From Longimicrobiales bacterium (GTDB lineage: Bacteria > Gemmatimonadota > Gemmatimonadetes > Longimicrobiales > Gaopeijiaceae): a DNA stretch of 64,000 nucleotides. The notes beneath the pieces are model-generated. The model worked only from the letters and a program-made list of their open reading frames with translations, made no database searches and was not told the DNA's origin. Position 1 is the stretch's first letter, and the number at the start of each line of letters is the position of its first letter. The DNA lies in contig CBDDCX010000008.1 in the NCBI GenBank assembly GCA_965226375.1, forward strand, positions 2,206,798 to 2,270,797, in the 5' to 3' direction. Shown here in pieces: positions 11,890 through 59,574 of this stretch. The position numbers were made by a program, and so were the translations under genes.

Positions 11890-13437
11890 ATGACAGGCAA
11901 ACTCATGTATTCGTCTCACGTCTTGTGCTGGCTGGGGCTCGCTTTGGTGGCGACACCGTATTCGTCTCACGTCTTGTGCTGGCTGGGGCTCGCTTTGGTG
12001 GCGACACCGGCGCTCGTCCGCGGCCAGGCCGGGGAGCGCCCGCCGGTGTGGTCGTCCGCCGAGACCTTCGGGGCCACGGAGTTATCGGGCGACCTGGAGG
12101 TCGCTCGAAAGGCCCTGGTTGAGGCGCACGCCGGCTTCAACCGGTACTCGAGCGCCGCCGAGACCGAGGCGGCGTTTCAACGAGCGGAGCAGTCCCTCCG
12201 TGACGGCATGACCGAGTTGGAGTTCCTGGGACTGATACGGGACGCCGTGGCAGTCTCGAGGGATGGTCACACGAGGGTCTCTCCCTCACGGGAGCTCGCC
12301 TCGCTTGTGAGCGAGTCTTCGTACGTGCTTCCGTTGGATCTGGAGATGCGCGAAGACGGCGCGTACGTGAAGAAGTCGTACGCCGGCGCAGGTGGTCCAC
12401 CTCCTGGAGCTCGGGTGCTGAGCATCAACGATGACGGCATGCAGGACATCCTGACCCGATTGCTTGCCGCCCACCCCGGGGACGGGTCCATCCAGACCGG
12501 GAAGCTGCATCGACTCGGTCGACCGCTCACGTTCTCGGACTACTATATGTCCCAGTTGGAGCCGACCGAACGATACGACGTCCGATTTCAGGCCCTGGAC
12601 GGCGGCCCCGAACAGCGAGTCGCCTTGGAGGGGATGACCCCGGCCGAGTTTCGCATGCGATCCGGGGCGGGACGTCATGGAGCGCCGCAGGCGACTCCCC
12701 CGATCGAGTTCACTTCACGGGATGGTATCGGGGTACTCACGGTGCGCAGCTTCGGCGCACCGATCTACGAGACCGCAGGCCTCGACTTTCCGGAATTCCT
12801 TCAGCGGACCTTCGAACAGCTCCGCAACACTGATGCAAAAGGGCTCGTCATCGACGTGCGTGGCAACGGAGGGGGTACGGACCGATACGGCCTCCTGCTC
12901 GCCAGCTACCTGCTCAGCGAGCGCTTTCAGTACTACGAGCGGCTCGAGGTGAAGACGGCGTCCTTCCCCTTCCTGACGTCCCTCGGCACGGGCGTTCCGG
13001 ACATCCCGATGGACCAAGTCCGTTCGAACGACCGGGGAAATTATGACTATCTCGATCACTCGAACCTCGGATCGCACGAACCGCAGGGCATGAGGTTCGG
13101 CGGCCCGGTCGTCGTCCTTCAAGATGGCGGGAGCTTTTCGGCGACGAGTGAGTTTCTCTCGGTCGTGCGCCACGCGGATCGGGCCGTCTTCGTCGGAGAA
13201 GAGAGCGGGGGAGGCTACTACGGCAATACGTCCGGCCTCGGCGCTACCGTCACCCTTCCGGCGACCGGCGTGCGGGTCCAGATCCCGATCGTGGGCTACT
13301 GGATGGCCGTGCCCGGCCAAGAACCTCGGGACCGTGGGCTCATCCCGGACCACCGGGTCGATTCCTCGATCGAGGAGCTACTCATGGGTACGGATCGGCC
13401 CCTGGAGTTCGCCCGCAACCTGCTGTCACAGGGTTGA
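11890..13437 (+). CDS. S41 family peptidase
   Basis: DGHT, LVIDVRGNGGG, SFSATSEF, VGEESGG, RGLIPD. Confidence 0.88.
   Translation: MTGKLMYSSHVLCWLGLALVATPYSSHVLCWLGLALVATPALVRGQAGERPPVWSSAETFGATELSGDLEVARKALVEAHAGFNRYSSAAETEAAFQRAEQSLRDGMTELEFLGLIRDAVAVSRDGHTRVSPSRELASLVSESSYVLPLDLEMREDGAYVKKSYAGAGGPPPGARVLSINDDGMQDILTRLLAAHPGDGSIQTGKLHRLGRPLTFSDYYMSQLEPTERYDVRFQALDGGPEQRVALEGMTPAEFRMRSGAGRHGAPQATPPIEFTSRDGIGVLTVRSFGAPIYETAGLDFPEFLQRTFEQLRNTDAKGLVIDVRGNGGGTDRYGLLLASYLLSERFQYYERLEVKTASFPFLTSLGTGVPDIPMDQVRSNDRGNYDYLDHSNLGSHEPQGMRFGGPVVVLQDGGSFSATSEFLSVVRHADRAVFVGEESGGGYYGNTSGLGATVTLPATGVRVQIPIVGYWMAVPGQEPRDRGLIPDHRVDSSIEELLMGTDRPLEFARNLLSQG
11907..12008 (+). repeat. Perfect 51-bp tandem duplication in the signal peptide
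   Basis: YSSHVLCWLGLALVATP encoded twice by identical DNA. Confidence 0.9.
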
Positions 13438-37873: not shown

Positions 37874-39452
37874 CCCTCTCTGCCAACGTACGTGAGACAC
37901 GGAGCACGCAAAGAATTAGAGTAGGGCGAAGGCAGAGAAAACGAACATGTTGGGACTGCGAGAGAGAATGGCAGAGAATGGTAGTGCCCCTGGAACCGGG
38001 GAGGCCAAGCGAAGCGCGGCAGCTCCTGCGGACCCGGAGGTAGTAGATAGGCCGCTACGGCGGCGGTTCAGTCCGTCGTACAAGCTGCGGATCGTCGAAG
38101 AAGCGGACCGGTGCACCGAGCCCGGCGAGGTGGGTCAAGTCCTGCGGCGAGAGGGCCTGTACTCGTCGCACCTGACGACGTGGCGCAAGGCGGCGCATAG
38201 CGGGTCGCTGAAGGCCCTGTCGAAGAAACGCGGCCGCAAGCCGGAGCGAAATCCGCTGGATGAGAAGGTACGCAAGCTGGAGCGGCGAAACGCACGGCTC
38301 GGGAATGAGCTCAGGAAGGCACACCTGATCATCGACGTGCAGGGAAAAGTTGCGGGGCTGCTGGGGATAAGCCTCGACGACGGGACAAACTCTTGAAGGC
38401 GGCCGATGAGCTGGCTAAGCACGTCGGTGTAAAACCGGCGTGCGCGGCCCTCGAGGTCTCCCGATCGACGTTGTACCGTCGTCGAGGCCCATCAACCGGG
38501 CAACAGCAGCCCCGCCCGACGCCCGCCCGGGCATTGAGCGAGACGGAACGAGGCGAGGTCTTCGACACGCTGTGTTCGGAGCGGTTCGTGGACCGCTCAC
38601 CCGCCGAGGTGGTGGCCACGCTGCTCGACGAAGAGGTCTACCTGTGCAGCGAACGCACGATGTATCGTGTTCTGGCCTCCGAGGTGCCGGTTCAGGAACG
38701 CCGGGCGCAGCGCACCCATCCCGAGTACAAGAAGCCCGAGTTGATGGCCACGGCGCCGAACCAGGTGTGGTCCTGGGATATCACGCGGCTGCTCGGGCCG
38801 AAGAAGTGGAGCTATTACTACCTCTACGTCATCATGGACATCTACAGCCGCTACGTCGTGGGCTGGATGGTGGCGGACCGGGAGAACTCGGCCCTGGCCG
38901 GCCGGTTGATCCAGCAGAGCTGCCTGAAGCATGGCGTCCAGCCCCGGGTCCTGACCCTGCACTCGGATCGGGGACGACTCCAATGACGAGCCAATGCACC
39001 GCTCAACTTCTCGCTGACCTCGGCGTGACAATGTAAAACCCGCTCGTTGAGCCGGCCTCAGGTGTCGGATGACAACCCGTTTTCCGAGGCTCAGTTCAAA
39101 ACCTTGAAGTACCATCCCTCGTTTCCCGGACGGTTCGGGGATCAGGGCCAAGCCAAGACGTTCTGTCGATCGTTCTTCCGCTGGTACAATGCCGAGCACC
39201 GCCATGGCGGCATCTCGATGCTAACCCCCGAGCAGGTCCACTTCGGGAACGCCGATCAGGTCATTGCCGGCAGGAAATCCGTGCTCCGCGAAGCATGGGC
39301 CGCTCATCCCGAACGCTTCGTCAGAGGTGTGCCGAAGCCCAAACCGCTCCCGGAGGCCGTCTTCATCAATCCTCCCATCCCTTCCCTCACCACACAGGAC
39401 ATTGCTCTCTAATTAATCCCGTAGAGTGTCCCATTGTCGTTGACAGGTTCCG
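37874..39452 (+). mobile_element. IS3-family element, copy A (orfA 37947-38396; orfB 38393-39412 broken near 38970-39040)
   Basis: IR TGCCAACGTACGTGAGACAC / GTGTCCCATTGTCGTTGACA; near-identical to 45288-46854 with 2- and 10-nt insertions. Confidence 0.9.
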
Positions 39453-39837
39453 CTGCGCGATCAAGATGTGGACCGCAAGCGACCCCGAACACCCCATGCG
39501 CTCAAGCTACGGGTGATGCTCGGGCGGTGCGATGGCCGGACGTGGGCTGGATGGTGGCGGACCGGGAGAACTCGGCCCTGGCCGGCCGGTTGATCCAGCA
39601 GAGCTGCCTGAAGCATGGCGTCCAGCCCCGGGTCCTGACCCTGACCTTCTACTCGTTGTCGGCCAGTCGCGCCCTCACTCGTCTCGCGCCTGCAACAGCA
39701 ATCCCTGGATCTCTTCCGTCCAGGATCGAGCCATATCCCGAGTACGCAAGCTGGAGCGGCGAAACGGTTCTGACAAACTCTTGAAGGCGGCCGATGGCGT
39801 CCGCCGGCGTGCGGCCCTCGAGGTCTCCCGATCGTCG

Positions 39838-50539: not shown

Positions 50540-52788
50540 TCAAAGCGCCCACAGGTAGGTCAGCTTCACCACGCCGGTCCGCCTGTCCAATGCCGACTCC
50601 CGGAAATTGATCCCGTCTTCGAAGAAGTACCCGGTGTTGAATACCACGAACAGATCCGACCCCGGCGTGTGGATCCAGTTGATCCGCATGTTGGCCTGGA
50701 GCTTCTTCGAGTCGTTGTCGTACTGGATCAAGGTCTCGGCGAAAAGCTCGCGGTTTATGGCCATCAGGATGTTGGCGCGCAAGATCGTGGTCGAGAAGTC
50801 GCCGTTGGCCACTGGCAGGCGGATGATGTTGTGATTCGCAGTCAGTTGGACCTCGAGGTGCCTCGAGAACTTCATGGTGGGCCCACCGCCGAACGTGGTC
50901 CGCGTGCCGCCGAAAAACCCGCCATAACTGAGCGCCAATGACCCCGCCAACGGCCGGCTCCAGTAGGGCCGGTAGCTCAGGTTTCCGGTCGTGAACGTGT
51001 AGTCCCCCGCAGCGATCGTCACGTCGTCCCGAATCTGAAACGGGACTTCGAGACGTTCGAAGCGACGCGTCACGCCGCCCCCGCCTCGGTCCGCGTTCTC
51101 GAGCGAGAACGAGAAGTCGGAACTCAGTTCGGTCGACTGCTTTTCGTGATCCTGACCCTCGATGTAGTCGCCGCCAACGGACAGGGAAACCTGGCGAACG
51201 AACCGGTCACCCCGACCGATGCGTGGCGAGATCCCCGCCTTCCCGCTGTAGCTGATCATGTTCCGGCGGCGTACGAACCCGATCCCAGGATCGAAGTCGT
51301 CCCCGACGTTCAGATAGCCCAACTCGAACAGATAGAGATCCGTGTCGATGGTCAGATCCGCGGCGCCGGCGAACGAACGGCCGTCTCCGTCGGACGACCA
51401 GACGCTCGTGGCCCAAGCGTCGAACGTGCTTCCGCTCCAAAAGCGGGCCGCCACGTCCCCGCCCAACGCGCGATTGTGTTCGCCGCCGCCTTCACGATTC
51501 GTGAACAGCGTGCCGAGGGTCAGTCCTGGCAGCACCTCGCCCCGGATGCGGGCGACGCCGAAGTTGGTCCCCGGATCGTCGATCTCGTTCCTGGTCTGGA
51601 GATCAAGCACACCAACCGAGATCGGACCGGCCTGCCCCGTAGTCCGTGCCCCCGCCAGAATGTCGTTCGTAATCCCGATGCGACGGCTGAAGAATGTCTC
51701 TGTGCCCCGCGATCCGAACTCGAACAGGCCCGACCGCTCGAGAAAGAACTCACGTTTTTCGGGAAAGCGCAGGCTGAATCGAGTGAGGTTGATCTGGACG
51801 TTGTCCGCCTCCACCTGGGCAAAGTCCGTGTTGTACGTGAGATCGACCGTGAGGTTGGGCGTGATGCCGTACTTCAGCCCTGCCGGCCCGTCGCTCTCTT
51901 CTCATCGAGACCGAAGTCGGTGTCGGTGTCATTCTCGACGCCTTCCACACCCAGGTTGACCTTCTGGGCGCCGGCGAGCCCATAGGGTTTGATCTCCAGG
52001 TTCCGCCCGGGACGCACGTTCTCGAGGCCGACGATCGTCGCGTACTGGGACGAGTGCGGAAGACCCCAGAAACGCTTGTAGTCGAGATCGATGAGTGGCC
52101 ACATCACGATCTCGTTCTTGCGCACGATCCCCCGCTCAATCACCACACCCATCTCGATGGGCTCCGCCGGATCGAAGCGAATGGTGGTGAAAGGAATGGC
52201 CACCTCCAACACCCATCCTTCGTCGTTGACCTGACCCTGACTCTCGTAGACGCCCTCCCAGTTCCACGCAATGTCACTCTCGTCCGTGACTAAAGCGTCA
52301 CCCTGCGTTCCGAACGAATTCAGCTCGAACAGATATGCGTTCCGATCGTCGTTGTAGGAGTCCAGTCCGATATGAACGTGATCGTCCTGGGGGATGAGGC
52401 CCTCGCGCTTCATTACTGTGCGCCTGATCTTGTCAGGCTCCGAGTCGAAGAGCGTGAGCCCGAAGTAGAGGGCGCGTTCGTCGTAAGCGATGCGCACCTC
52501 GCTTCTCTCCGTGGGCTCGGCACCCTCATTCGGCACGCGCTGTTTGAAGCCGCTGATGGGCTCGATGGTCCGCCAGAACAGCTCGTCCAACACCCCGTCG
52601 ATGCTGGGACGATTTTCTACGTAGGTGGCGTGAACCAAGATGTCGCTGTTCCGTCGCGCACCTGAGGTGGAGGCGTCCCTGCCTACTTCCTGGGCGAACG
52701 CCGGCTGCAGCCATGCGCCAGCCAGAACGACCGGCACCAGGGCAGTGCCCGGGCCTTGAAACCCGAAAAGAGGGCGCTTCAGGAGCAT
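50540..52788 (-). pseudogene. CBM9-like/DUF5916 outer-membrane protein, frameshifted near 51890
   Basis: IDGVLDE..W, W..EVAIPF..IRF, LEIKPY, then KYGITPNLTVDLTYNTDFAQVEAD and FPEKREFFLE in another frame. Confidence 0.8.
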
Positions 52789-52899
52789 GGTTGAGGCGGC
52801 GGCATCCTCATCATGAGACGAGCCCCTCTCAAGATATTGGCCTCTGCACCCCGTCGGGCCCGTTGTCCGAGTCCTGTGCGCTCGAGTTGTTCGGCATCC

Positions 52900-53091
52900 C
52901 CCAGTCGGTTCGCCTCCCGTGACCAGGAGGATCCACGCCCCCTGGAATTCGATGACCGCAGAGGTGCCGCCGTATTCGCGAAAGAGGGCGGCTCCAAGGA
53001 CGTCTACATAGAACGAGCGAGCTCGCTCTACGTCCTCCACAACCAGAAGAAGCGTCAGTTCGACGCCCTCGACGGGAAACTCATTGGACAT
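52900..53091 (-). pseudogene. N-terminal half of a VOC/glyoxalase protein (cassette-type gene)
   Basis: LLVVEDVERARSFYVDVLG; follows the R' box GTTAGAG; similarity appears to stop after GGEPT. Confidence 0.7.
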
Positions 53092-53199
53092 GCCCTACCT
53101 CGCCCCCTTCCTCGCACTCTAACACAACTTGAAAGCACGCCCCCTGTGGGTACCGTGGAGTTGCGAAACGACCATGGACCACAGCAGAGGGCGGCTCTC

Positions 53200-54291
53200 A
53201 TGAAGCGGAACACCAAGTATGTGGGACTCGACGTGCACCAGGCAATGACGGTGGCGACGGTTCGGGGCCAAGGGGGACGAGTGATCGCGCGCAGCGTGAT
53301 CGAGACGGGGGACGCATCGATCACGGAGTTCTTCAGCGCGATGCGCGGGTCGGTGCACGTAGTGTTCGAAGAGGGAACCCAGGCGCAGTGGCTCTACGAC
53401 CTACTGAGTCCTCGTGTGGATCGGGTGATCGTATGCGATCGCAGAGGCGAAAAGCGTTCGGGCAACAAGGGGGACCAGGTCGATGCCGACGAGCTGTCGG
53501 AGCGGTTGCGGTGTGGCGGGCTGCGCGCGGTATACCACGGCGCACACGGCCGATCTGATCTCAAGGAGCTGACTCGAGCCTATCGCAACCTCGTCGAAGA
53601 CGGCACGCGCGTGATGCTGCGGCTCAAGGCACTCTTCCGTGCGCGGGCGATCCGAACCACGGGCGGCGGAGTCTACCAGCCGAAGCAGCGCGGCGCCTGG
53701 CTCGCGCAGCTACCGGAGGGAGGAGCTCGTCTACGAGCCGAGACCCTGTACGCTCAGCTCGATGTGCTTCGGGCTCAGCGCAAGAAGACCAAGGCGGCCA
53801 TGGTCGCCGAGGCGAAGCGTGATCCGGCCTTCGGGGTGCTCGAGACGATCCCCTACTTTGGGCCCGTGCGTATCGCACTGTTGCTAGCAACCATGGGTAC
53901 GCCGTGGCGCTTCCGCACGAAGCGCAACCTGTGGGCCTATGCCGGACTCGCCGTGGTCACGCGCTCGAGCTCCGACTACGAGTTGTTCGATGGGCGTCCT
54001 CGCCGGCGGCGGCGCCCTCCGCTCACTCGAGGGTTGAACCGCAACCACAATCGAGTCCTCAAGAATGTCTTCAAGGGCGCCGCCAACGTAGCCATTGGAC
54101 GTCCGGGCCCATTCCTGGACTTCTATAACCGAATGCTCGAGCGCGGGATGCGCGAGGAGCTCGCCCGTGTGACGCTGGCTCGCAAGCTCGCAGCGCTCAC
54201 CCTTCGTCTACTCAAAACCGGAGAAGTCTTTGATCCGACGCAGCTGAGTCGACCCCAAACATTGAGGGGGGTTCATCGTCCTAGGGTGTAG
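53200..54291 (+). CDS. IS110 family DEDD recombinase/transposase
   Basis: YVGLDVH, VFEEGT, KGDQVDA, WAYAGL..RSSS. Confidence 0.93.
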   Translation: MKRNTKYVGLDVHQAMTVATVRGQGGRVIARSVIETGDASITEFFSAMRGSVHVVFEEGTQAQWLYDLLSPRVDRVIVCDRRGEKRSGNKGDQVDADELSERLRCGGLRAVYHGAHGRSDLKELTRAYRNLVEDGTRVMLRLKALFRARAIRTTGGGVYQPKQRGAWLAQLPEGGARLRAETLYAQLDVLRAQRKKTKAAMVAEAKRDPAFGVLETIPYFGPVRIALLLATMGTPWRFRTKRNLWAYAGLAVVTRSSSDYELFDGRPRRRRRPPLTRGLNRNHNRVLKNVFKGAANVAIGRPGPFLDFYNRMLERGMREELARVTLARKLAALTLRLLKTGEVFDPTQLSRPQTLRGVHRPRV

Positions 54292-54695
54292 GGGTGCAGC
54301 GCATGACCTTCGATCCCTTGGAACGTCGAATCCCTGGACGACGGTGCGGGAGGCAGTCTCAAGCAAATCCGTACGCCCGGCTCGCAGTCATGCCGAGGCA
54401 CGATCCTAACTCCAGGCCCTTCCGCAGAACCCGAAGAAGTGTCAGGCCGGCCCCGAGGCTGAGTCTCAGATAGAACCATGGTTCGCGTCGTACGACCTAG
54501 GTCCACTCAATCAAGTCCAGACGGATCGACCATCCAAGTGAGGATCATCGTGGCCGACACGAAGACTGACTCATCCAGCACACCACTCCCTGACGATCCG
54601 GTCATTCCAGCCAAGCGGAGGCTGAGTGCCAAGCCCAACACGGCTTCGCAGACAGCCGGGGCGGAGCCCGGCCTTGACACTCTCTTTCATAGAAC
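54292..54695 (+). ncRNA. Putative bridge/seek RNA region of IS110 copy 2
   Basis: One visible substitution versus copy 1; CCTAAC at 54405, ATAGAAC at 54470; TTGACA close to the right end. Confidence 0.6.
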
Positions 54696-54786
54696 CAATT
54701 TGCGATCCTGCTGCGCCTCAATCTGGCCAACGCCATCGAAGTACGCGAGCTAGATGTCTACCGCGACTGCAGCAATCGCTTGTTAG
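54696..54786 (-). other. attC site core, separated from its R' (53117-53123) and native R'' (58454-58460) by two insertions
   Basis: Rebuilt: GCCTAAC-AAGCG-ATTGCTGC...GCAGCAGGATCGC-AAATTG-GTTAGAG, ~100 bp imperfect palindrome. Confidence 0.82.
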
Positions 54787-54817
54787 GGCAATAATATAGT
54801 TGGCTAACCCATAAATT

Positions 54818-56516
54818 TTATTCGTCGTTGCCTGATGGCTCCTCGGGTGCCTCCTCAAGTCCGTCCATGAATTCCGTCTGCAAGTGCTCGGGCGATAGAG
54901 GAAGGTCGCTGACTCGGGTAACGGGAACGCCCACCTGTTTCCCGAGTTTCTCGATGTCCTTGTCGTCGGAATAGATTTCCGACGCGCCAGAGACCTTAGC
55001 GATCGCAACGATCTGGCGATCGAACTTGAGCTTCGCCCACGTCTGCGCACCGGCCTTCGGTGGTTTGTTGCCGAGTTCGCCCCTCAGCATGACCGCCACT
55101 TCGATGGCGGCGCGTTGGTCGAAGGACTCAATAATGAAGACCGCCTGGCGGTTTAGCGTCTCGACGATCCCCGTCGCTTCTTTTGGCGCCAATGGGGTAT
55201 TGCCTTAAGTCCACCGCCCACTACATGTTGTGGTCATGGCGGTTCCGGCTTCTCAGCTCCGTGGCGGCGTGGACTATCCCCGTACGCGGCTGGAGCTGGA
55301 CGAGTTCTTCCCCGACGATGCGGCATGCCTGGAGTACGTGGAGGGTCTGCGCTGGCCGGAAGGGTTTGTGTGCGTGGGCTGTGGCGGGTTGGGAGAGGTC
55401 TGGCGAGCATCGCGGGGGCGTCTCGTCTGCCCACACTGTCGAAGGCAGACCTCGGTGCTGGCGGGAACCGTGTTCCACCGCACGCGCTCGCCCCTGCGTC
55501 GAAGGCAGACCTCGGTGCTGGCGGGAACCGTGTTCCACCGCACGCGCTCGCCCCTGCGTCTGTGGTTTCTCGCTGCCTGGGAGCTCACGAGCCAGAAATA
55601 CGGAGCCAATGCTCTCGGGCTCCAGCGCGTGCTCGGACTGGGAAGCTACAAGACAGCGTGGGTCTGGCTCCACAAGCTCCGCCGGGCCATGGTCCGACCG
55701 GATCGCGACCAGCTGAGCGGCGTTGTGCAAGTGGACGAGAGCTATGTCGGGGGCGTGGAGGCTGGAGTGCGGGGCCGCGAGACGATCAAGAAGGCCATCG
55801 TCGCGATCGCCGCCGAGGTCGACGGACGCAAGATCGGGAGAATACGGCTGCGTTGGGTGCCCGACCTCTCCGCTCCGGTTCTGCGAGGCTTCGTCAAGGA
55901 TAGCATCGCACCGGCAAGCACGGTGCATACCGACGGATGGCCAAGCTATCAGGGACTCGCCAAACTGGGCTTTCGCCACACGGTCACGAACCTCTCGACC
56001 TCCGGCGATCCCGCTCACGTGCTCATGTCGGCCGTACATCGGGTGGCGTCTCTCCTCAAGCGCTGGGTCCTCGGAACCCTCCAAGGAGGGATCGCCCGCG
56101 AACACCTCCCCTACTATCTGGACGAGTTCACCTTTCGCTTCAACCGACGCACATCCCGGGCTCGCGGCCTGTTGTTCTACCGCTTGCTTGAGCAGGCTGT
56201 TCAGTGTGCTCCCACGCCAGCTTCGGCCCTTTACCTCGGCACCGGACGTGGGAAACGGCCCGCAGAGCCCCGGTAACCACTATATCTTGGGGTCGGTGGA
56301 CTTAAGGGAATACCCCCTTGGCGCCATTCTTACCAGCGCCTCACTGAGGGAGGGCGTGGGAATGACGATTTTCGTGCCAGACCGATCCAGTTCGGATATG
56401 AGGTATTCTACGCGCTTCCGAGGTTCCACAACTGGCTTGCCGGAGGGGTCCCGCGGCGGCCCAGGGGCTCCGGGTTGGAGGAGTAGGATAAGCATGGAAG
56501 CGTCAATCACTACCAC
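54818..56516 (-). pseudogene. PIN-domain (VapC-like) nuclease interrupted by IS1595 A copy 4
   Basis: Joined across the TSD: MVVIDASMLI..IPTPSLSEAL..KFDRQIVAIAKV.GASEIYSDDKDI. Confidence 0.85.
55192..56318 (+). mobile_element. IS1595-family element A, copy 4, with in-frame 60-bp duplication (transposase 55230-56276)
   Basis: TSD TGGCGCCA; 55441-55500 repeated at 55501-55560. Confidence 0.95.
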
Positions 56517-57255
56517 TGGCTAACCGCCCTCGCCTGATTTCCCCTAGTTCCTCATAGGCCCCATCGTCCCATTCTCCCGCAATCGCGCGAAGCTCCGTCA
56601 GGGCACTCCCTAGCGTCGTAGGCTCAAGCCTTCCAAAGCTATCGATGCGGAAATGCTTGAGGAGCCACCGCCCTTCACCATCCCGTATCCAATATCCCTG
56701 ACCACCGAGGCGCACTGGCTCGAACAGATGGTGAGCCAAGCTCTTCGCAAGGTGCCTATTGGTGTGGCAACCAGCGATTGGTTCACCTTCGTACTCCATG
56801 AGCACCGGGATACTGTCCCCTGTGCCTCCCACGCGAACGACTACGCCGGAGATACTTCCGGCCTGGTTCACAGCGGAGAAGACCTCCTCCGCTTCCTCCC
56901 TACCCGGAAAATCCAGAACCTTGGCGCCTCTCTTTCCCTTTCTCAGAACCGCCCGCGCGTTGTCCTCTCGAAGGAATTTGTTCACCATCCGATAGGCGGT
57001 CTGCGCATCGCGCGGCGCTCCTCCGAGGCGAACGGCCTCCGTCCGTGCATGAACCTTAGGAATCGCCTCGTGCTCGATCTTCTGTACAAGGGTCGTGCTT
57101 CCTTCCTCGATCTGCACCAGGTGGACGGACTTCGGCTCTCCGAGGATCGCCGCTAGTCCCGCCAGATACTCAGCGAGGCGTGCCATAGGCATCGTCTCGG
57201 GCGTGAACGCCTCGATCTTGAAGAGATACTCGCCGGGTATCGGCCCGTTAGTCAC
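56503..57255 (-). CDS. Uncharacterised 250-aa protein, partner of the PIN nuclease
   Basis: Clean ORF overlapping the PIN start; beta-rich C-terminal half (possible OB-like fold, inference). Confidence 0.8.
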   Translation of the reverse strand: MTNGPIPGEYLFKIEAFTPETMPMARLAEYLAGLAAILGEPKSVHLVQIEEGSTTLVQKIEHEAIPKVHARTEAVRLGGAPRDAQTAYRMVNKFLREDNARAVLRKGKRGAKVLDFPGREEAEEVFSAVNQAGSISGVVVRVGGTGDSIPVLMEYEGEPIAGCHTNRHLAKSLAHHLFEPVRLGGQGYWIRDGEGRWLLKHFRIDSFGRLEPTTLGSALTELRAIAGEWDDGAYEELGEIRRGRLASGSD

Positions 57256-57404
57256 GTCGTCCCCGGCCCTTTGCTGTTGGCATTCTCCCCTACTTTTTGC
57301 TTCAACGCCTTCTTCATGCGTTCCAACCCCGCGCTTGGATCTCGGATCCGCTCGGGACTACGGTCCGCGTCTGAGGTGGGGGTGGGCTTCTTTGTTTCGC
57401 TCAT
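57252..57404 (-). CDS. 50-aa charged ORF coupling transposase and cargo (not in the ORF track)
   Basis: MSETKKPTPTSDADRSPERIRDPSAGLERMKKALKQKVGENANSKGPGTT; ATGA and GTGA overlaps with both neighbours. Confidence 0.6.
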   Translation of the reverse strand: MSETKKPTPTSDADRSPERIRDPSAGLERMKKALKQKVGENANSKGPGTT

Positions 57405-58375
57405 GAAACGCACAACTCCTGTCCGGTCAACTCGGAGTACCTGATTCGCCTGTCGATGATCCCCTTGAGGGCTGTAAGGAACCGACCGGAATCGGTATCC
57501 TCACGCATGTTGAACCTGAATGCCTGCTCATCAAGATAGCGGGTGACGTGGAACGGCTCTATGGACACGTACGTCCCGCCGATCGTCCGCTTGAGCAGGG
57601 ACCAGAAGTTCTCGATTCCGTTCGTATGGACGCGGCCCCTAACGTACTCGTGAACGTGGTCGATGACCTCGTGCATGTACTCGGATTTGAGCCCGTAGTA
57701 GCCCCAATGCCGGTCGGTGAACAGCCTCGCCCCTTCCTCGACGTTGTCCCGGACGTGGCCCTGCATGGTCCGCTTGGTCACGTCCGAGAGGACGCGGGTA
57801 CGGACAAGAGAGTGCGGGGCGTTATGGGGCCGCTCAAGGAGTCCCATGACGGCGGTTTTGTCGTGTCCTCCGGTCCCATGGATGACTCGCTTCCGCTTGG
57901 CGATGTGCATGTTCTTGGCCTTCCCGCCGATGTAGGTCTCATCGACCTCCACCTCGCCGTCCATCTTCTCGAAAGAGCCCATGCGCAGGGCCTCGCGGAT
58001 GCGCTGAAGCATGAACCAAGCAGTCTTCTGGGTTACGCCAATATGACGGCTCAGCTCATAACTGGAAATACCGTTCTTACAGTTCACGAGTAGCCAGACA
58101 GCGGGGAGCCATTGGGAAAGTTTGATCGGGCTGTCCTCGAAGATCGTTCCGACCTTGATGGAGAACTGCCTACGGCACGCCTTCTCGCGACACCTCCACC
58201 GCCTCTGGTTCTTGAACCAATAATGCCGACCCACTGTACCGCATTTCGGGCAAACCTGTTCGCCATCCGGCCAACGGGCATCCGCGAGGAACTGGATCGC
58301 GTCTTCCTCGTCGGCAAAGAACCGGGCCGCTTGCAGGAACGTCGCTGGAGCCTTCATTTCACTTTCGTTCGCCAT
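57401..58375 (-). CDS. IS1595 family transposase (distinct from element A)
   Basis: CPKCG..CREKAC, VEVDETYIGG, LFTD, HTNGIENFWSLLKR, YLDEQAFRFN. Confidence 0.95.
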   Translation of the reverse strand: MANESEMKAPATFLQAARFFADEEDAIQFLADARWPDGEQVCPKCGTVGRHYWFKNQRRWRCREKACRRQFSIKVGTIFEDSPIKLSQWLPAVWLLVNCKNGISSYELSRHIGVTQKTAWFMLQRIREALRMGSFEKMDGEVEVDETYIGGKAKNMHIAKRKRVIHGTGGHDKTAVMGLLERPHNAPHSLVRTRVLSDVTKRTMQGHVRDNVEEGARLFTDRHWGYYGLKSEYMHEVIDHVHEYVRGRVHTNGIENFWSLLKRTIGGTYVSIEPFHVTRYLDEQAFRFNMREDTDSGRFLTALKGIIDRRIRYSELTGQELCVS

Positions 58376-58453
58376 CGTCTTCTCGGTAGAGGGTTGTTCG
58401 ACTACCGAAATATACGGTCTTTCTTTGGATTAGTCAAGTATGTTGTTGCCCTT

Positions 58454-59203
58454 GTTAGGCTGAATCCTGCCCCGACCCTGTACTATCTCAATTGGGCGTC
58501 GAATAGCGCGAGCATTCTGTTCCAGGATTCTTCGGCGAAGCTCTCGTTGAAGACTTCGGGACGGGTGTCGTTGAAGAAGGCGTGGTCGGCGCCGTTGTAG
58601 ATGTGGATTTCGATTTCTTTCCCGACGGCTTTCAGGTCGGCTTCGAGTTTGTGGGCAACGGCGGGAGTGACAAACCCATCGTTTTCGGCGAAGAAGCCAA
58701 GCACCGGCGCGTGCAGGTTGGCCAAGTCAGGGTGCACTTCCGAGTGAATGCCGTAGTAGTTGACGCACGCGCCGACTTTGTTGTTCGCGCAGGCCGCGTA
58801 GAGCGACAACTGGCCGCCCATGCAAAAACCGACTGTGCCGACTTGGTCGCCGGTCGTAGCATCGAGTCCGAGTAGGTAGTCGACGGCGCCGCGCATGTCC
58901 AGTTCTGTGCGATCGATGTTGAGCGCCATCATGAGCTTACCCGCATCGTCGGGGCTGGTGGTCGATTCGCCATGGTAGAGGTCCGGCGCAAGCGCAACGA
59001 ACCCCACTTTGGCAAGCCTGTCGCACACATCTTTGATGTGGTCGACAAGACCCCACCACTCCTGCAAGACGATGACGCCGGGGCCACGGCCGGAATCGGG
59101 GATAGCGAGGTAGCCTTTGCACCTGCCGCCGTTGCTGGGGAACTCAACCATTTGACCTGCCATTAGCTCGCTGCAGCCTGACACCGTGAGGATTCAGTCT
59201 AAC
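58454..59203 (-). mobile_element. Integron-type gene cassette carrying the dienelactone hydrolase gene
   Basis: Starts GTTAGACTGAATCCT, ends AGGATTCAGCCTAAC (14/15 complementary); attC sequence on both sides. Confidence 0.8.
58483..59163 (-). CDS. Dienelactone hydrolase family protein
   Basis: LQEWWGL, ALAPDLY, GFCMGG, AdHAFFND. Confidence 0.92.
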   Translation of the reverse strand: MAGQMVEFPSNGGRCKGYLAIPDSGRGPGVIVLQEWWGLVDHIKDVCDRLAKVGFVALAPDLYHGESTTSPDDAGKLMMALNIDRTELDMRGAVDYLLGLDATTGDQVGTVGFCMGGQLSLYAACANNKVGACVNYYGIHSEVHPDLANLHAPVLGFFAENDGFVTPAVAHKLEADLKAVGKEIEIHIYNGADHAFFNDTRPEVFNESFAEESWNRMLALFDAQLR

Positions 59204-59269
59204 GCATTGCGATTCTGTTGCGCGGCTAAGATGGTGACCGCCGGCGAAGCGCGCGAGCCTAATGTCTAC
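59197..59269 (-). repeat. attC-family site, right two-thirds with R' GTTAGAC
   Basis: GTAGACATTAGGCTCGCGCGCTTCG...GCGCAACAGAATCGCAATGCGTTAGAC, homologous to 54696-54786. Confidence 0.78.
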
Positions 59270-59574
59270 TAACCCAGAGAGCCGCCCCAACGAAAATTGA
59301 AATCCCGAAAAATTTGCGAGGGCAGATGTAATGACGAGATGACGCGAGCTCGTTGAAGAATCTTTAGGCTGGTGAATGATCGAGGGCAAAGTTGGAGCGG
59401 GAAGAGGCCAACGACCGGAGGGCCAGAGACTGCCAGGGTAGCGGAAGACGTACATGTAGGCGTTGAGCCGTTGGACTGTCCCTACTGCCATGCGTGGGGC
59501 GTTTGAATATTGCCGGAACCCACGAAGGCCCTCGCCTGATAATCATGCGGAAATGGAAGCTCGAAACGGCTTCA

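Follow-up and report, generated by a model that had tools for sequence, protein, structure and literature searches.

How genes become joined to attC sites is a long-standing question of integron biology. The known invaders of attC are IS1111 elements, whose IS1111-attC group was reportedly treated by Tetu and Holmes (2008) and by Post and Hall (2009), and group IIC introns, for which Leon and Roy (2009) are said to have proposed a role in cassette formation; to our knowledge, none of these invaders has passenger genes. Siguier et al. (2009) reportedly described 'transporter' forms of the IS1595 family that do carry passenger genes. Most attC sites have 5-6 nt between L' and R'.

The IS1111-attC group comprises ISPa21, ISPst6, ISKpn4 and ISPa25 (PMC11187229) and inserts 'near the 5'-end' of attC (PMC3001079). 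Group IIC-attC introns are described as retroelements at the 5' end of attC, which target the bottom strand and lie antisense (PMC3001079). The IS1595 family is characterized by a transposase with Zn-ribbon and DDE domains, TIRs that start with GG and an 8-bp TSD (PMC8101967). In descriptions of chromosomal integrons, CALIN and solitary attC sites, a cassette is a gene plus an attC, and arrays frequently contain IS (12% of CALIN and 23% of complete integrons) (10.1101/030866). A Shewanella survey places IS1595 in arrays, with most IS in coding regions and none interrupting an attC (PMC9229058). We found no published report of recurrent IS1595 insertion in attC R boxes.

We analyzed a 64,000-nt stretch of a Longimicrobiales genome (the window) that contains one attC with an IS1111-type element at its R' end, an IS1595-family element (element B) at its R'' end and a third IS nested in element B. 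The junctions that a sequence-only reading had assigned to these three elements are exact to the base, including the core AAC and the TSDs. The attC and its neighboring cassette genes are arranged as follows:

52912..53091, minus strand, VOC/glyoxalase cassette gene, a 5' fragment of ~60 codons fused in frame to a CBM9-like gene
53117..53123, minus strand, original R' GTTAGAG, moved 1.57 kb away by the IS1111-type element
54689..54788, minus strand, attC in its present form, in which R'' CCCTAAC is regenerated and L''/L' and the central part are intact
58451..58460, minus strand, stub of the original R'' GCCTAAC (58460-58454), with the other copy of the TSD
58483..59163, minus strand, dienelactone hydrolase cassette gene (PF01738, 185.7 bits)
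59197..59292, minus strand, upstream attC, 3' part only (profile positions 29-99; 39.2 bits), without R''/L''

Scripted removal of both outer elements yields a 100-nt attC, close to the ~100 bp originally proposed, which scores 54 bits against a profile from 34 attC candidates of other genomes. It consists of R'' GCCTAAC, a 5-nt spacer, L'' ATTGCTGC, L' GCAGGAT, a 9-nt spacer and R' GTTAGAG; L'' and L' pair at 6/7 positions, and L'' carries an extra base at its position 4. The occupied form is recovered at full length (61.8 bits, E 6.7e-14) by a covariance model built from 28 sites other than the window attC. Folding of the single strand, also suggested as a check, gave modest energies (z -2.9 for the emptied and -1.3 for the occupied site), and with z 0.2 at the occupied locus L055 folding energy by itself does not discriminate. 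In the 28 family sites, which were preselected for L pairing, all four central R pairs are conserved in 28/28 and the L pairs in 27-28/28, and compensatory changes are present. Arrays of this family follow over-cut-off TIGR02249 matches in genomes G070, G011, G597 and G504, with intI pointing toward the array, unlike the systems of Cury et al. (10.1101/030866). The genome of the window has one over-cut-off IntI, on another contig, and with its dispersed remnants resembles CALIN cases in which IntI is encoded elsewhere. On sequence grounds, these 100 nt form a true attC, one of a Gemmatimonadota family that occurs in arrays linked to IntI.

A textbook attC is described with an extrahelical G on the bottom strand (PMC3518468). 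The window attC and 25/28 family sites have a C at this position, the family L'-R' spacer measures 8-9 nt instead of the usual shorter one, and there are three extra paired bases. The C and the long spacer are a lineage variant and not special to the window attC. An attC scan with an L'-R' spacer of 5-7 nt returned no sites at all and missed the rebuilt one too, because the family requires 8-9 nt. Recombination of the bottom strand by IntI is a further property expected of attC sites.

The hydrolase gene stops at 58483, and R'' follows 23 nt downstream. The G|TT of the upstream attC at 59203|59202 opens the cassette, whose ends are complementary over 13/14 nt (start, GTTAGACTGAATCC; end, GGATTCAGCCTAAC); the window attC closes what reads as a real hydrolase cassette. 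The flanking genes had been named as a dienelactone hydrolase and a VOC gene. The first name holds, but the second belongs to a 60-codon fragment within ORF 51874-53091, which matches Glyoxalase at aa 14-60 and CBM9_1 at aa 164-316. Empty alleles of the hydrolase cassette, suggested as a check in related genomes, were found neither in 60 relatives nor among the joints listed (15 of 22).

The three elements carry the following features:

53124..54695, plus strand, IS110-family element of IS1111 type, sharing its core AAC with the target (53121-53123, 54693-54695)
53200..54291, plus strand, DEDD recombinase, 363 aa (over cut-off for PF01548, 33.5 bits, and for PF02371, 41.2 bits)
54363..54410, plus strand, predicted target-binding loop of a seek/bridge RNA (MFE fold)
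54779..54786, plus strand, TSD copy of element B
54787..58450, minus strand, element B, IS1595 family with passenger genes, 3664 bp; TIRs begin with GGC and have 4 mismatches in 18 nt
54818..56516, minus strand, passenger gene with a PIN domain, which the nested IS divides into 56516-56319 and 55191-54818
55192..56318, plus strand, nested IS1595-family element of another group, TSD TGGCGCCA
56503..57255, minus strand, passenger gene, 250 aa, coupled translationally to the PIN gene
57252..57404, minus strand, 50-aa ORF directly downstream of the transposase
57401..58375, minus strand, IS1595 transposase of element B, 324 aa (PF12762, 131.8 bits; PF12760, 44.7 bits)

The element at the R' end has the hallmarks of the IS1111 group: a DEDD transposase, sub-terminal inverted repeats (TGAAAG/CTTTCA), a short left end, a long (400 nt) non-coding right end and no TSD. 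It is oriented antisense to the cassettes, and the genome contains 8 left and 6 right ends. Two segments of the right end, GCAAATCCGT (54363-54372) and ATCCTAAC (54403-54410), match the R' end, one on each target strand, and are largely unpaired on opposite sides of one internal loop in an MFE fold; over the whole region the fold is not significant (z 0.37). A variant in G011 (93% identical at the amino acid level) carries GCAGAGACGT. In that genome, 9/9 sites with the matching spacer, one of them differing by a base, are occupied, compared with 0/7 others (p 9e-5), and the guides co-vary with the target spacer between G011 and the window. We strongly infer that the element is RNA-guided, and regard the G011 split of guide and target as a clean natural case in which a bridge RNA has been reprogrammed against a repeat of its host.

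The insertion point is the 3' GTT triplet of attC, the integrase crossover, in the window, at C7:273723, at the nine sites of G011 and at L009. As a result, the present R' of the window attC is the IS end GTTCTAT, and the AAC/GTT triplet is the only R pairing left. The element resembles the IS1111-attC group in its IS1111 type, its right-end RNA with two guides that match an attC end, the order of these guides (top-strand match, then bottom-strand) and its antisense orientation (PMC11187229). It enters at the 3' R' crossover triplet, however, at the other end from the insertions described for that group (PMC3001079). A comparison of its transposase with 72,556 plasmids gave a single match at E<1e-10, an archaeal IS110 at 28%, so the element probably represents a lineage of its own that came to use attC by convergence.

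Element B and the nested IS both have Zn_ribbon_IS1595 and DDE_Tnp_IS1595 domains, TIRs that start with GG and 8-bp TSDs, in line with the IS1595 family. The TSD of element B, CTTGTTAG, lies at 54779-54786 and 58451-58458, its only two copies in the window, and on the cassette strand consists of CTAAC from R'' and AAG from the spacer. It thus duplicates most of R'' and regenerates a CCCTAAC box, as had been noted. This box was said to lie directly behind the PIN gene, which is so, but the gene is broken by the nested IS. PIN homologs at loci L054 and L060 are uninterrupted, 186 aa long and match PF01850. There are 44 left ends of the nested IS in the genome, and its copy in the window has a 60-nt in-frame duplication. 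The 250-aa passenger has no Pfam or PADLOC match, its atlas neighbors are unnamed, and its single-sequence model is of low confidence (pLDDT 41). Related elements have similar ORFs of 44-66 aa downstream of the transposase. The transposase of element B has no plasmid match at E<1e-60. Like the IS1595 'transporter' forms, element B has its passenger genes after the transposase. It shares with group IIC-attC introns entry at the 5' end of attC and hence a place in the cassette; in contrast to them, it has a DDE transposase, an 8-bp TSD, either orientation and passenger genes. Whether other copies of element B lie in attC sites had been posed as a check. The near-identical one, a 2538-bp element without the nested IS in G133 (L054), is found at a non-attC site, and relatives do occupy attC.

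Outside the window, 11/33 resolved insertions of IS1595 relatives are located in an attC R box (10 Gemmatimonadota genomes), with four of the 11 being weaker cases (three supported by a single end and one half site). The R box is always rebuilt, the transposases are 46-85% identical, the upstream genes differ, and both orientations occur. This count includes L199 as an attC case, earlier placed as non-attC, and, as non-attC, L058, whose TSD is CTAACAAG but which gives no attC score; L202 and L212-L214 (Gemmatimonadota), whose ends are unresolvable, were left out beforehand. L207 and L208 were considered as R'' hits shifted by one base and rejected, as the model shows arrays running the opposite way, which makes them R' hits. 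In G597, R'' is followed by CCCG, and both elements sit at the R' end instead, again with a rebuilt box. A double hit on one attC arose independently in G011 (L055), with a different element. These cases bear out the proposal that attC is an insertion hotspot. The other 22/33 insertions lie outside attC R boxes, and identical or 98%-identical elements occur both inside and outside attC (L061/L062; window/L054). On a quick tree, the attC label is not clustered (7 changes, with 63/500 shuffles as low), and three small clades are wholly attC-associated (L198/L200/L201, L205/L206 and L207/L208). A paired TSD was present at 29 of 80 metagenome loci, in no case at an attC, and the covariance model detected a site at 0/80; as this model is lineage-specific, the result says only that the pattern is not evident there. 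Among the 80 viral matches listed of 94, nine had a TIR-like extension, none at an R box. To date, the IS1595-at-attC pattern is limited to a single phylum.

A shared attraction of hairpins, as the sequence-only reading had it, is not supported by these data: the IS1111-type element appears RNA-guided, with 3/5 resolved copies in its own genome in guide-like non-attC sequence, the IS1595 relatives follow an 8-mer, and the nested IS, of an unrelated group with different target preferences, is at attC in 0/44 cases. We lean, with some reserve, toward two independent sequence-directed mechanisms that meet on one attC through motif preference and survival in a harmless site. Two elements would share this attC because each finds a suitable R box in it and insertion there breaks nothing; identical elements outside attC make this a better explanation than common hairpin recognition. 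The IS1111-type recombinase would use its right-end RNA to pair with the R' box and adjoining spacer and recombine at the AAC/GTT triplet, where IntI crosses over. The element would become the head of the next cassette, leaving attC with GTT and without its other R pairing. IS1595 subgroup transposases would favor CTAATTAG, the palindromic, AT-rich 8-mer consensus of non-attC TSDs, a preference established statistically whose mechanism we infer. Such 8-mers are very rare in GC-rich genomes (CTAANNAG has only 35-235 occurrences per genome). R'' plus spacer reads CTAACAAG in 23/28 family sites and may be one of the few non-coding, repeated sources of the preferred 8-mer, and the choice of attC end by IS1595 relatives tracks the CTAATTAG-like preference. 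With GCC at both ends of the element and an 8-bp duplication, insertion restores the R box; insertions would thus be harmless and persist, with element and cargo placed inside the cassette boundaries, from where IntI might move them together.

Nulls calculated from the composition of the window's own genome only predict far fewer insertions at 20 attC sites (0.4-1% with an 8-mer weight matrix, ~3% with a looser class model) than the 33% seen. CTAACAAG has two positions disfavored by the preference, TAACGAAG, the target used twice in G597, is a poor motif match, and inside arrays R boxes are hit over other sites 11:1, with motif supply about even (p 0.003). To explain these figures, motif preference would have to be joined by a strong effect of survival or by an added structural cue. 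Such a cue would exist if the IS1595 subgroup, perhaps through the small ORF after the transposase, recognized the extruded attC hairpin or the IntI-bound site and then used the nearest acceptable 8-mer. The 10- to 80-fold enrichment over the motif nulls, the R-box excess, the poor motif in G597 and the wholly attC-associated clades (n=3) are consistent with this, yet we regard it as rather unlikely: two-thirds of the insertions (22/33) are elsewhere, some of them identical to attC-inserted copies, the attC label is scattered on the tree, end choice tracks the 8-mer, and if 15-20% of the sites usable in CTAA-poor genomes were attC, the excess would weaken to p 0.007-0.05.

It is less likely still that insertion is just motif-biased and that single-copy elements entered genomes within horizontally moved cassettes, which would make the route into cassettes the cause of the attC pattern. 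Most genomes do have one or two copies, and L060 and L200 are complete IS-bearing cassettes within arrays, but no two genomes have the same gene and IS cassette in common, the copy in the window's genome sits in an isolated, decayed cassette, and an identical copy in G070 outside the array (L061) is compatible with local transposition.

Of the junctions for which read support had been made decisive, 58450 is spanned by a Logan contig with no difference, whereas 54695 and 54786 are bridged by none of the 32 pieces listed of ~1250. Other Logan contigs span both nested-IS junctions, and contigs of two runs stop matching at 52911; the runs behind the Logan contigs may be the source sample. Although local oddities (the 60-nt duplication absent from run contigs, the unsupported junction at 52911) and the two unbridged junctions would fit a chimeric assembly or a fortuitous resemblance to attC, such an origin is very improbable given the exact 8-bp TSD, the score of the attC model, the contig across 58450, the same IS1111-attC junction at C7:273723 and the equivalent double insertion in G011, which involves a different element.

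A route for IS cargo into cassettes is real as geometry read from the sequence: by inserting into R'' and restoring the box, an IS1595 element places its passenger genes directly before an intact attC, which makes the route concrete and testable. A fully intact IS-bearing cassette in G018 (L060) represents a complete natural substrate. The idea that the cargo of element B became part of the hydrolase cassette stands in this geometric sense; neither a moved IS-bearing cassette nor an IS-free cassette of the cargo was found in 91 genomes, and movement of IS-bearing cassettes remains a proposal. The window copy is probably stuck, because the upstream attC has no R''/L'', R' is replaced by an IS end and the PIN gene is broken.

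A more far-reaching reading, which we hold doubtful, is that the IS1595 subgroup actively seeks attC, by its fold or with a small accessory protein, and systematically turns defense-like cargo (PIN pairs, methyltransferase-Mrr fusions) into cassettes. If so, the subgroup would represent a third class of attC parasite, for which attC would be a safe harbor and which would be a working source of new cassettes, alongside a separate IS1111 lineage programmed to enter at the integrase crossover as a cassette does.

The sequence-only reading had placed two unrelated IS families in one attC, between the dienelactone hydrolase gene and the VOC gene, and all its junction coordinates are borne out by the window sequence:

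53124-54695, IS110-family element; an AAC triplet is common to element and target on both sides
54787-58450, element B, an IS1595-family element carrying a 250-amino acid gene and a PIN gene; flanked by two copies of CTTGTTAG
55192-56318, nested second IS1595 element, of another group, splitting the PIN gene; flanked by two copies of TGGCGCCA

Removal of both outer elements in silico yields the proposed 100-nt attC, with R'' GCCTAAC, a 5-nt spacer, L'' ATTGCTGC, L' GCAGGAT, a 9-nt spacer and R' GTTAGAG. Contigs from sequencing runs, which may represent the source sample, cross 58450 and both nested-IS junctions; no piece bridging 54695 or 54786 is found among the run-contig matches listed. The VOC cassette gene breaks off after ∼60 codons at 52911, where it joins a CBM9-like gene; contigs from two runs (X15 and X16) diverge from the window at this position, and the break may stem from mis-assembly or from a private deletion. 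Perfect local duplications in the window (55438-55497, 11907-12008, and 38857-39643) are possibly long-read assembly errors, and the 60-nt duplication at 55438-55497 is missing from the run contigs and is found in hardly any other nested-IS copy. Across the genome (G000), the 8-bp flanks agree in only 22 of the 38 nested-IS copies that have both ends, a sign that IS-mediated rearrangements or mis-joins are numerous.

The site is an attC. Its repeat family forms head-to-tail arrays in relatives, and the arrays come after integron integrases scoring over cut-off in G070, G011, G597, and G504; in these four genomes intI is also oriented toward the array. Among 28 array sites, pre-selected for L pairing, the central R pairs are kept in 28 and the L pairs in 27–28, and three extra spacer bases are paired, with compensatory changes. 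The family differs from the textbook attC by an 8–9-nt right spacer and by C as the extra base. With a profile from 34 candidates in other genomes the rebuilt site reaches 54 bits, and with a covariance model the occupied site reaches 61.8 bits; a genome scan for attC is by itself non-discriminating, with only two matches in the real genome and matched random sequence (4.2 Mb) also giving two. The ends of the hydrolase unit are complementary, as in a true cassette, and the attC upstream of it retains its 3' part only. The genome's IntI lies on a different contig: an intact-looking gene (L001, G000:C4:70278-71400) ends on a GTTAGAT core followed by a same-strand attC-like remnant. The 22 attC-like matches in this genome are scattered and many are decayed. 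At G000:C7:272152-273805 the same IS1111 element occupies R' of a second attC of the family, ∼4 kb from another integrase-like gene, below the TIGR02249 cut-off.

The IS110-family element is built like the IS1111 elements described in PMC11208160 and PMC11187229, with its repeats sub-terminal and its right end long. In that end, GCAAATCCGT and ATCCTAAC match one target strand each, lie opposite each other across one predicted loop, and follow the order reported for IS1111 seekRNAs. A 93%-identical variant in G011 carries GCAGAGACGT instead; in the stretches fetched, it occupies 9/9 attC with the matching spacer, one of which deviates by a single base, and 0/7 with other spacers. Two of the five fully resolved copies in the genome of the window lie in attC and three in guide-like non-attC sequence, which argues that sequence, not the hairpin, is recognized. 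Insertion takes place at the GTT triplet of attC, the IntI crossover (PMC3518468), whereas described IS1111-attC elements enter near the 5' end (PMC3001079). A search for related transposases on plasmids found none. The element looks like another lineage converged on attC.

Element B has one copy in its genome, and relatives were therefore collected elsewhere: from 301 family genomes, 314 by end pattern, 401 phylum genomes, 401 second-family genomes, 401 class genomes by pattern, and 80 metagenome loci. Once the window and the four copies whose ends could not be resolved are set aside, 11 of 33 Gemmatimonadota insertions occupy an attC R box, spread over 10 genomes; nine of these insertions are in R'':

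R'', both ends and full site: L055, L060, L198, L200, L206
R'', half site: L201
R'', one end only: L062, L199, L205
R': L207, L208

Counting paired target site duplications (TSDs) only, 8/21 Gemmatimonadota insertions are at attC versus 0/29 metagenome loci. As had been noted for the window, the TSD regenerates the R box; at every attC-side junction seen, the element's terminal GCC/GGC plus the duplication restores it. At L062 the remainder of the attC is lost. L055 (G011) is a second double insertion, with a different element (75% amino acid identity) and a different cassette, and is unsurprising since IS1111 fills most suitable sites there. Elsewhere, the relative at L204 lies among tandem repeats of the word it targets, and metagenome loci L120 and L123 have back-to-back elements with one common TSD.

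The suggested attC hotspot recurs; the hairpin as shared cue is not supported, and the results favor sequence preference by IS1595. The consensus of 39 non-attC TSDs is the palindromic CTAATTAG; CTAA is rare in the Gemmatimonadota genomes studied (CTAANNAG occurs 142 times in that of the window and 35–235 times in ten others); in G597, where R'' is followed by CCCG, both IS1595 elements went to R'; identical elements lie inside and outside attC; the attC label is unclustered on a quick tree of the relatives; and the nested IS is in attC in 0/44 cases. CTAACAAG opens 23/28 family attC sites. Against sequence preference as the full account, a weight matrix expects 0.4–1% at 20 attC sites (genome of the window, crude gene mask), R-box insertions within arrays outnumber others 11:1 where both kinds of site offer the motif about equally often, and the sequence hit in G597 matches the motif poorly. 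The attC excess stays significant for every null of 15% or less (p 0.007 at 15%) and weakens at 20% (p 0.05), related genomes being not fully independent; what sequence preference leaves over must reflect survival of harmless insertions or else a structural cue. CTAACAAG also occurs within the element tails of L055 (at 10850) and L200, where it lies 48 and 30 nt, respectively, before the right end and may be left over from R'' insertions in the past. It occurs 100 times in G005; the sole non-element occurrence seen in L058 sits in a repeat that is also present three times in G000 and is probably the end of a multicopy IS.

The cargo had been proposed to have become part of the hydrolase cassette. 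The geometry agrees, as an R''-inserted element and its cargo have the cassette gene on one side and an intact attC on the other, and L060 (G018) is a complete IS-bearing cassette (attC 64.2 bits, fold z −6.3), but 91 genomes yielded neither a moved copy of such a cassette nor a PIN-gene cassette free of the IS. The unit in the window is probably immobile, because its R box now pairs at the triplet only, the upstream attC is incomplete, and its PIN gene is disrupted. The cargo arrived together with element B, since L054 (G133) has the same cargo at a non-attC site. The 250-amino acid and PIN pair recurs at L060:4090-6848, where the next gene encodes an N6/N4 methyltransferase with a fused Mrr-like domain; the transposases of the two elements are only 70% identical, and the shared pair suggests cargo exchange between elements. 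A small ORF (44–66 residues) follows the transposase in 10/11 Gemmatimonadota elements examined, one being a shorter 28-residue piece; in the window it spans 57252-57404, and the motif L.R..L.VPK is frequent in such ORFs.

Precedents exist for IS1111 elements and group IIC introns in attC and for passenger-bearing IS1595 elements. The literature searched, which excludes subscription papers and ISfinder notes, holds no report of IS1595 in attC, nor do the available portions of PMC9229058, PMC12444791, PMC11089894, PMC11616780, and 10.1101/030866; the first, a survey, states that no IS was seen to interrupt attC. The IS1595/IS1111 double insertion in attC is a real feature, and IS1595 insertion in attC is lifted above anecdote by recurring over the phylum.
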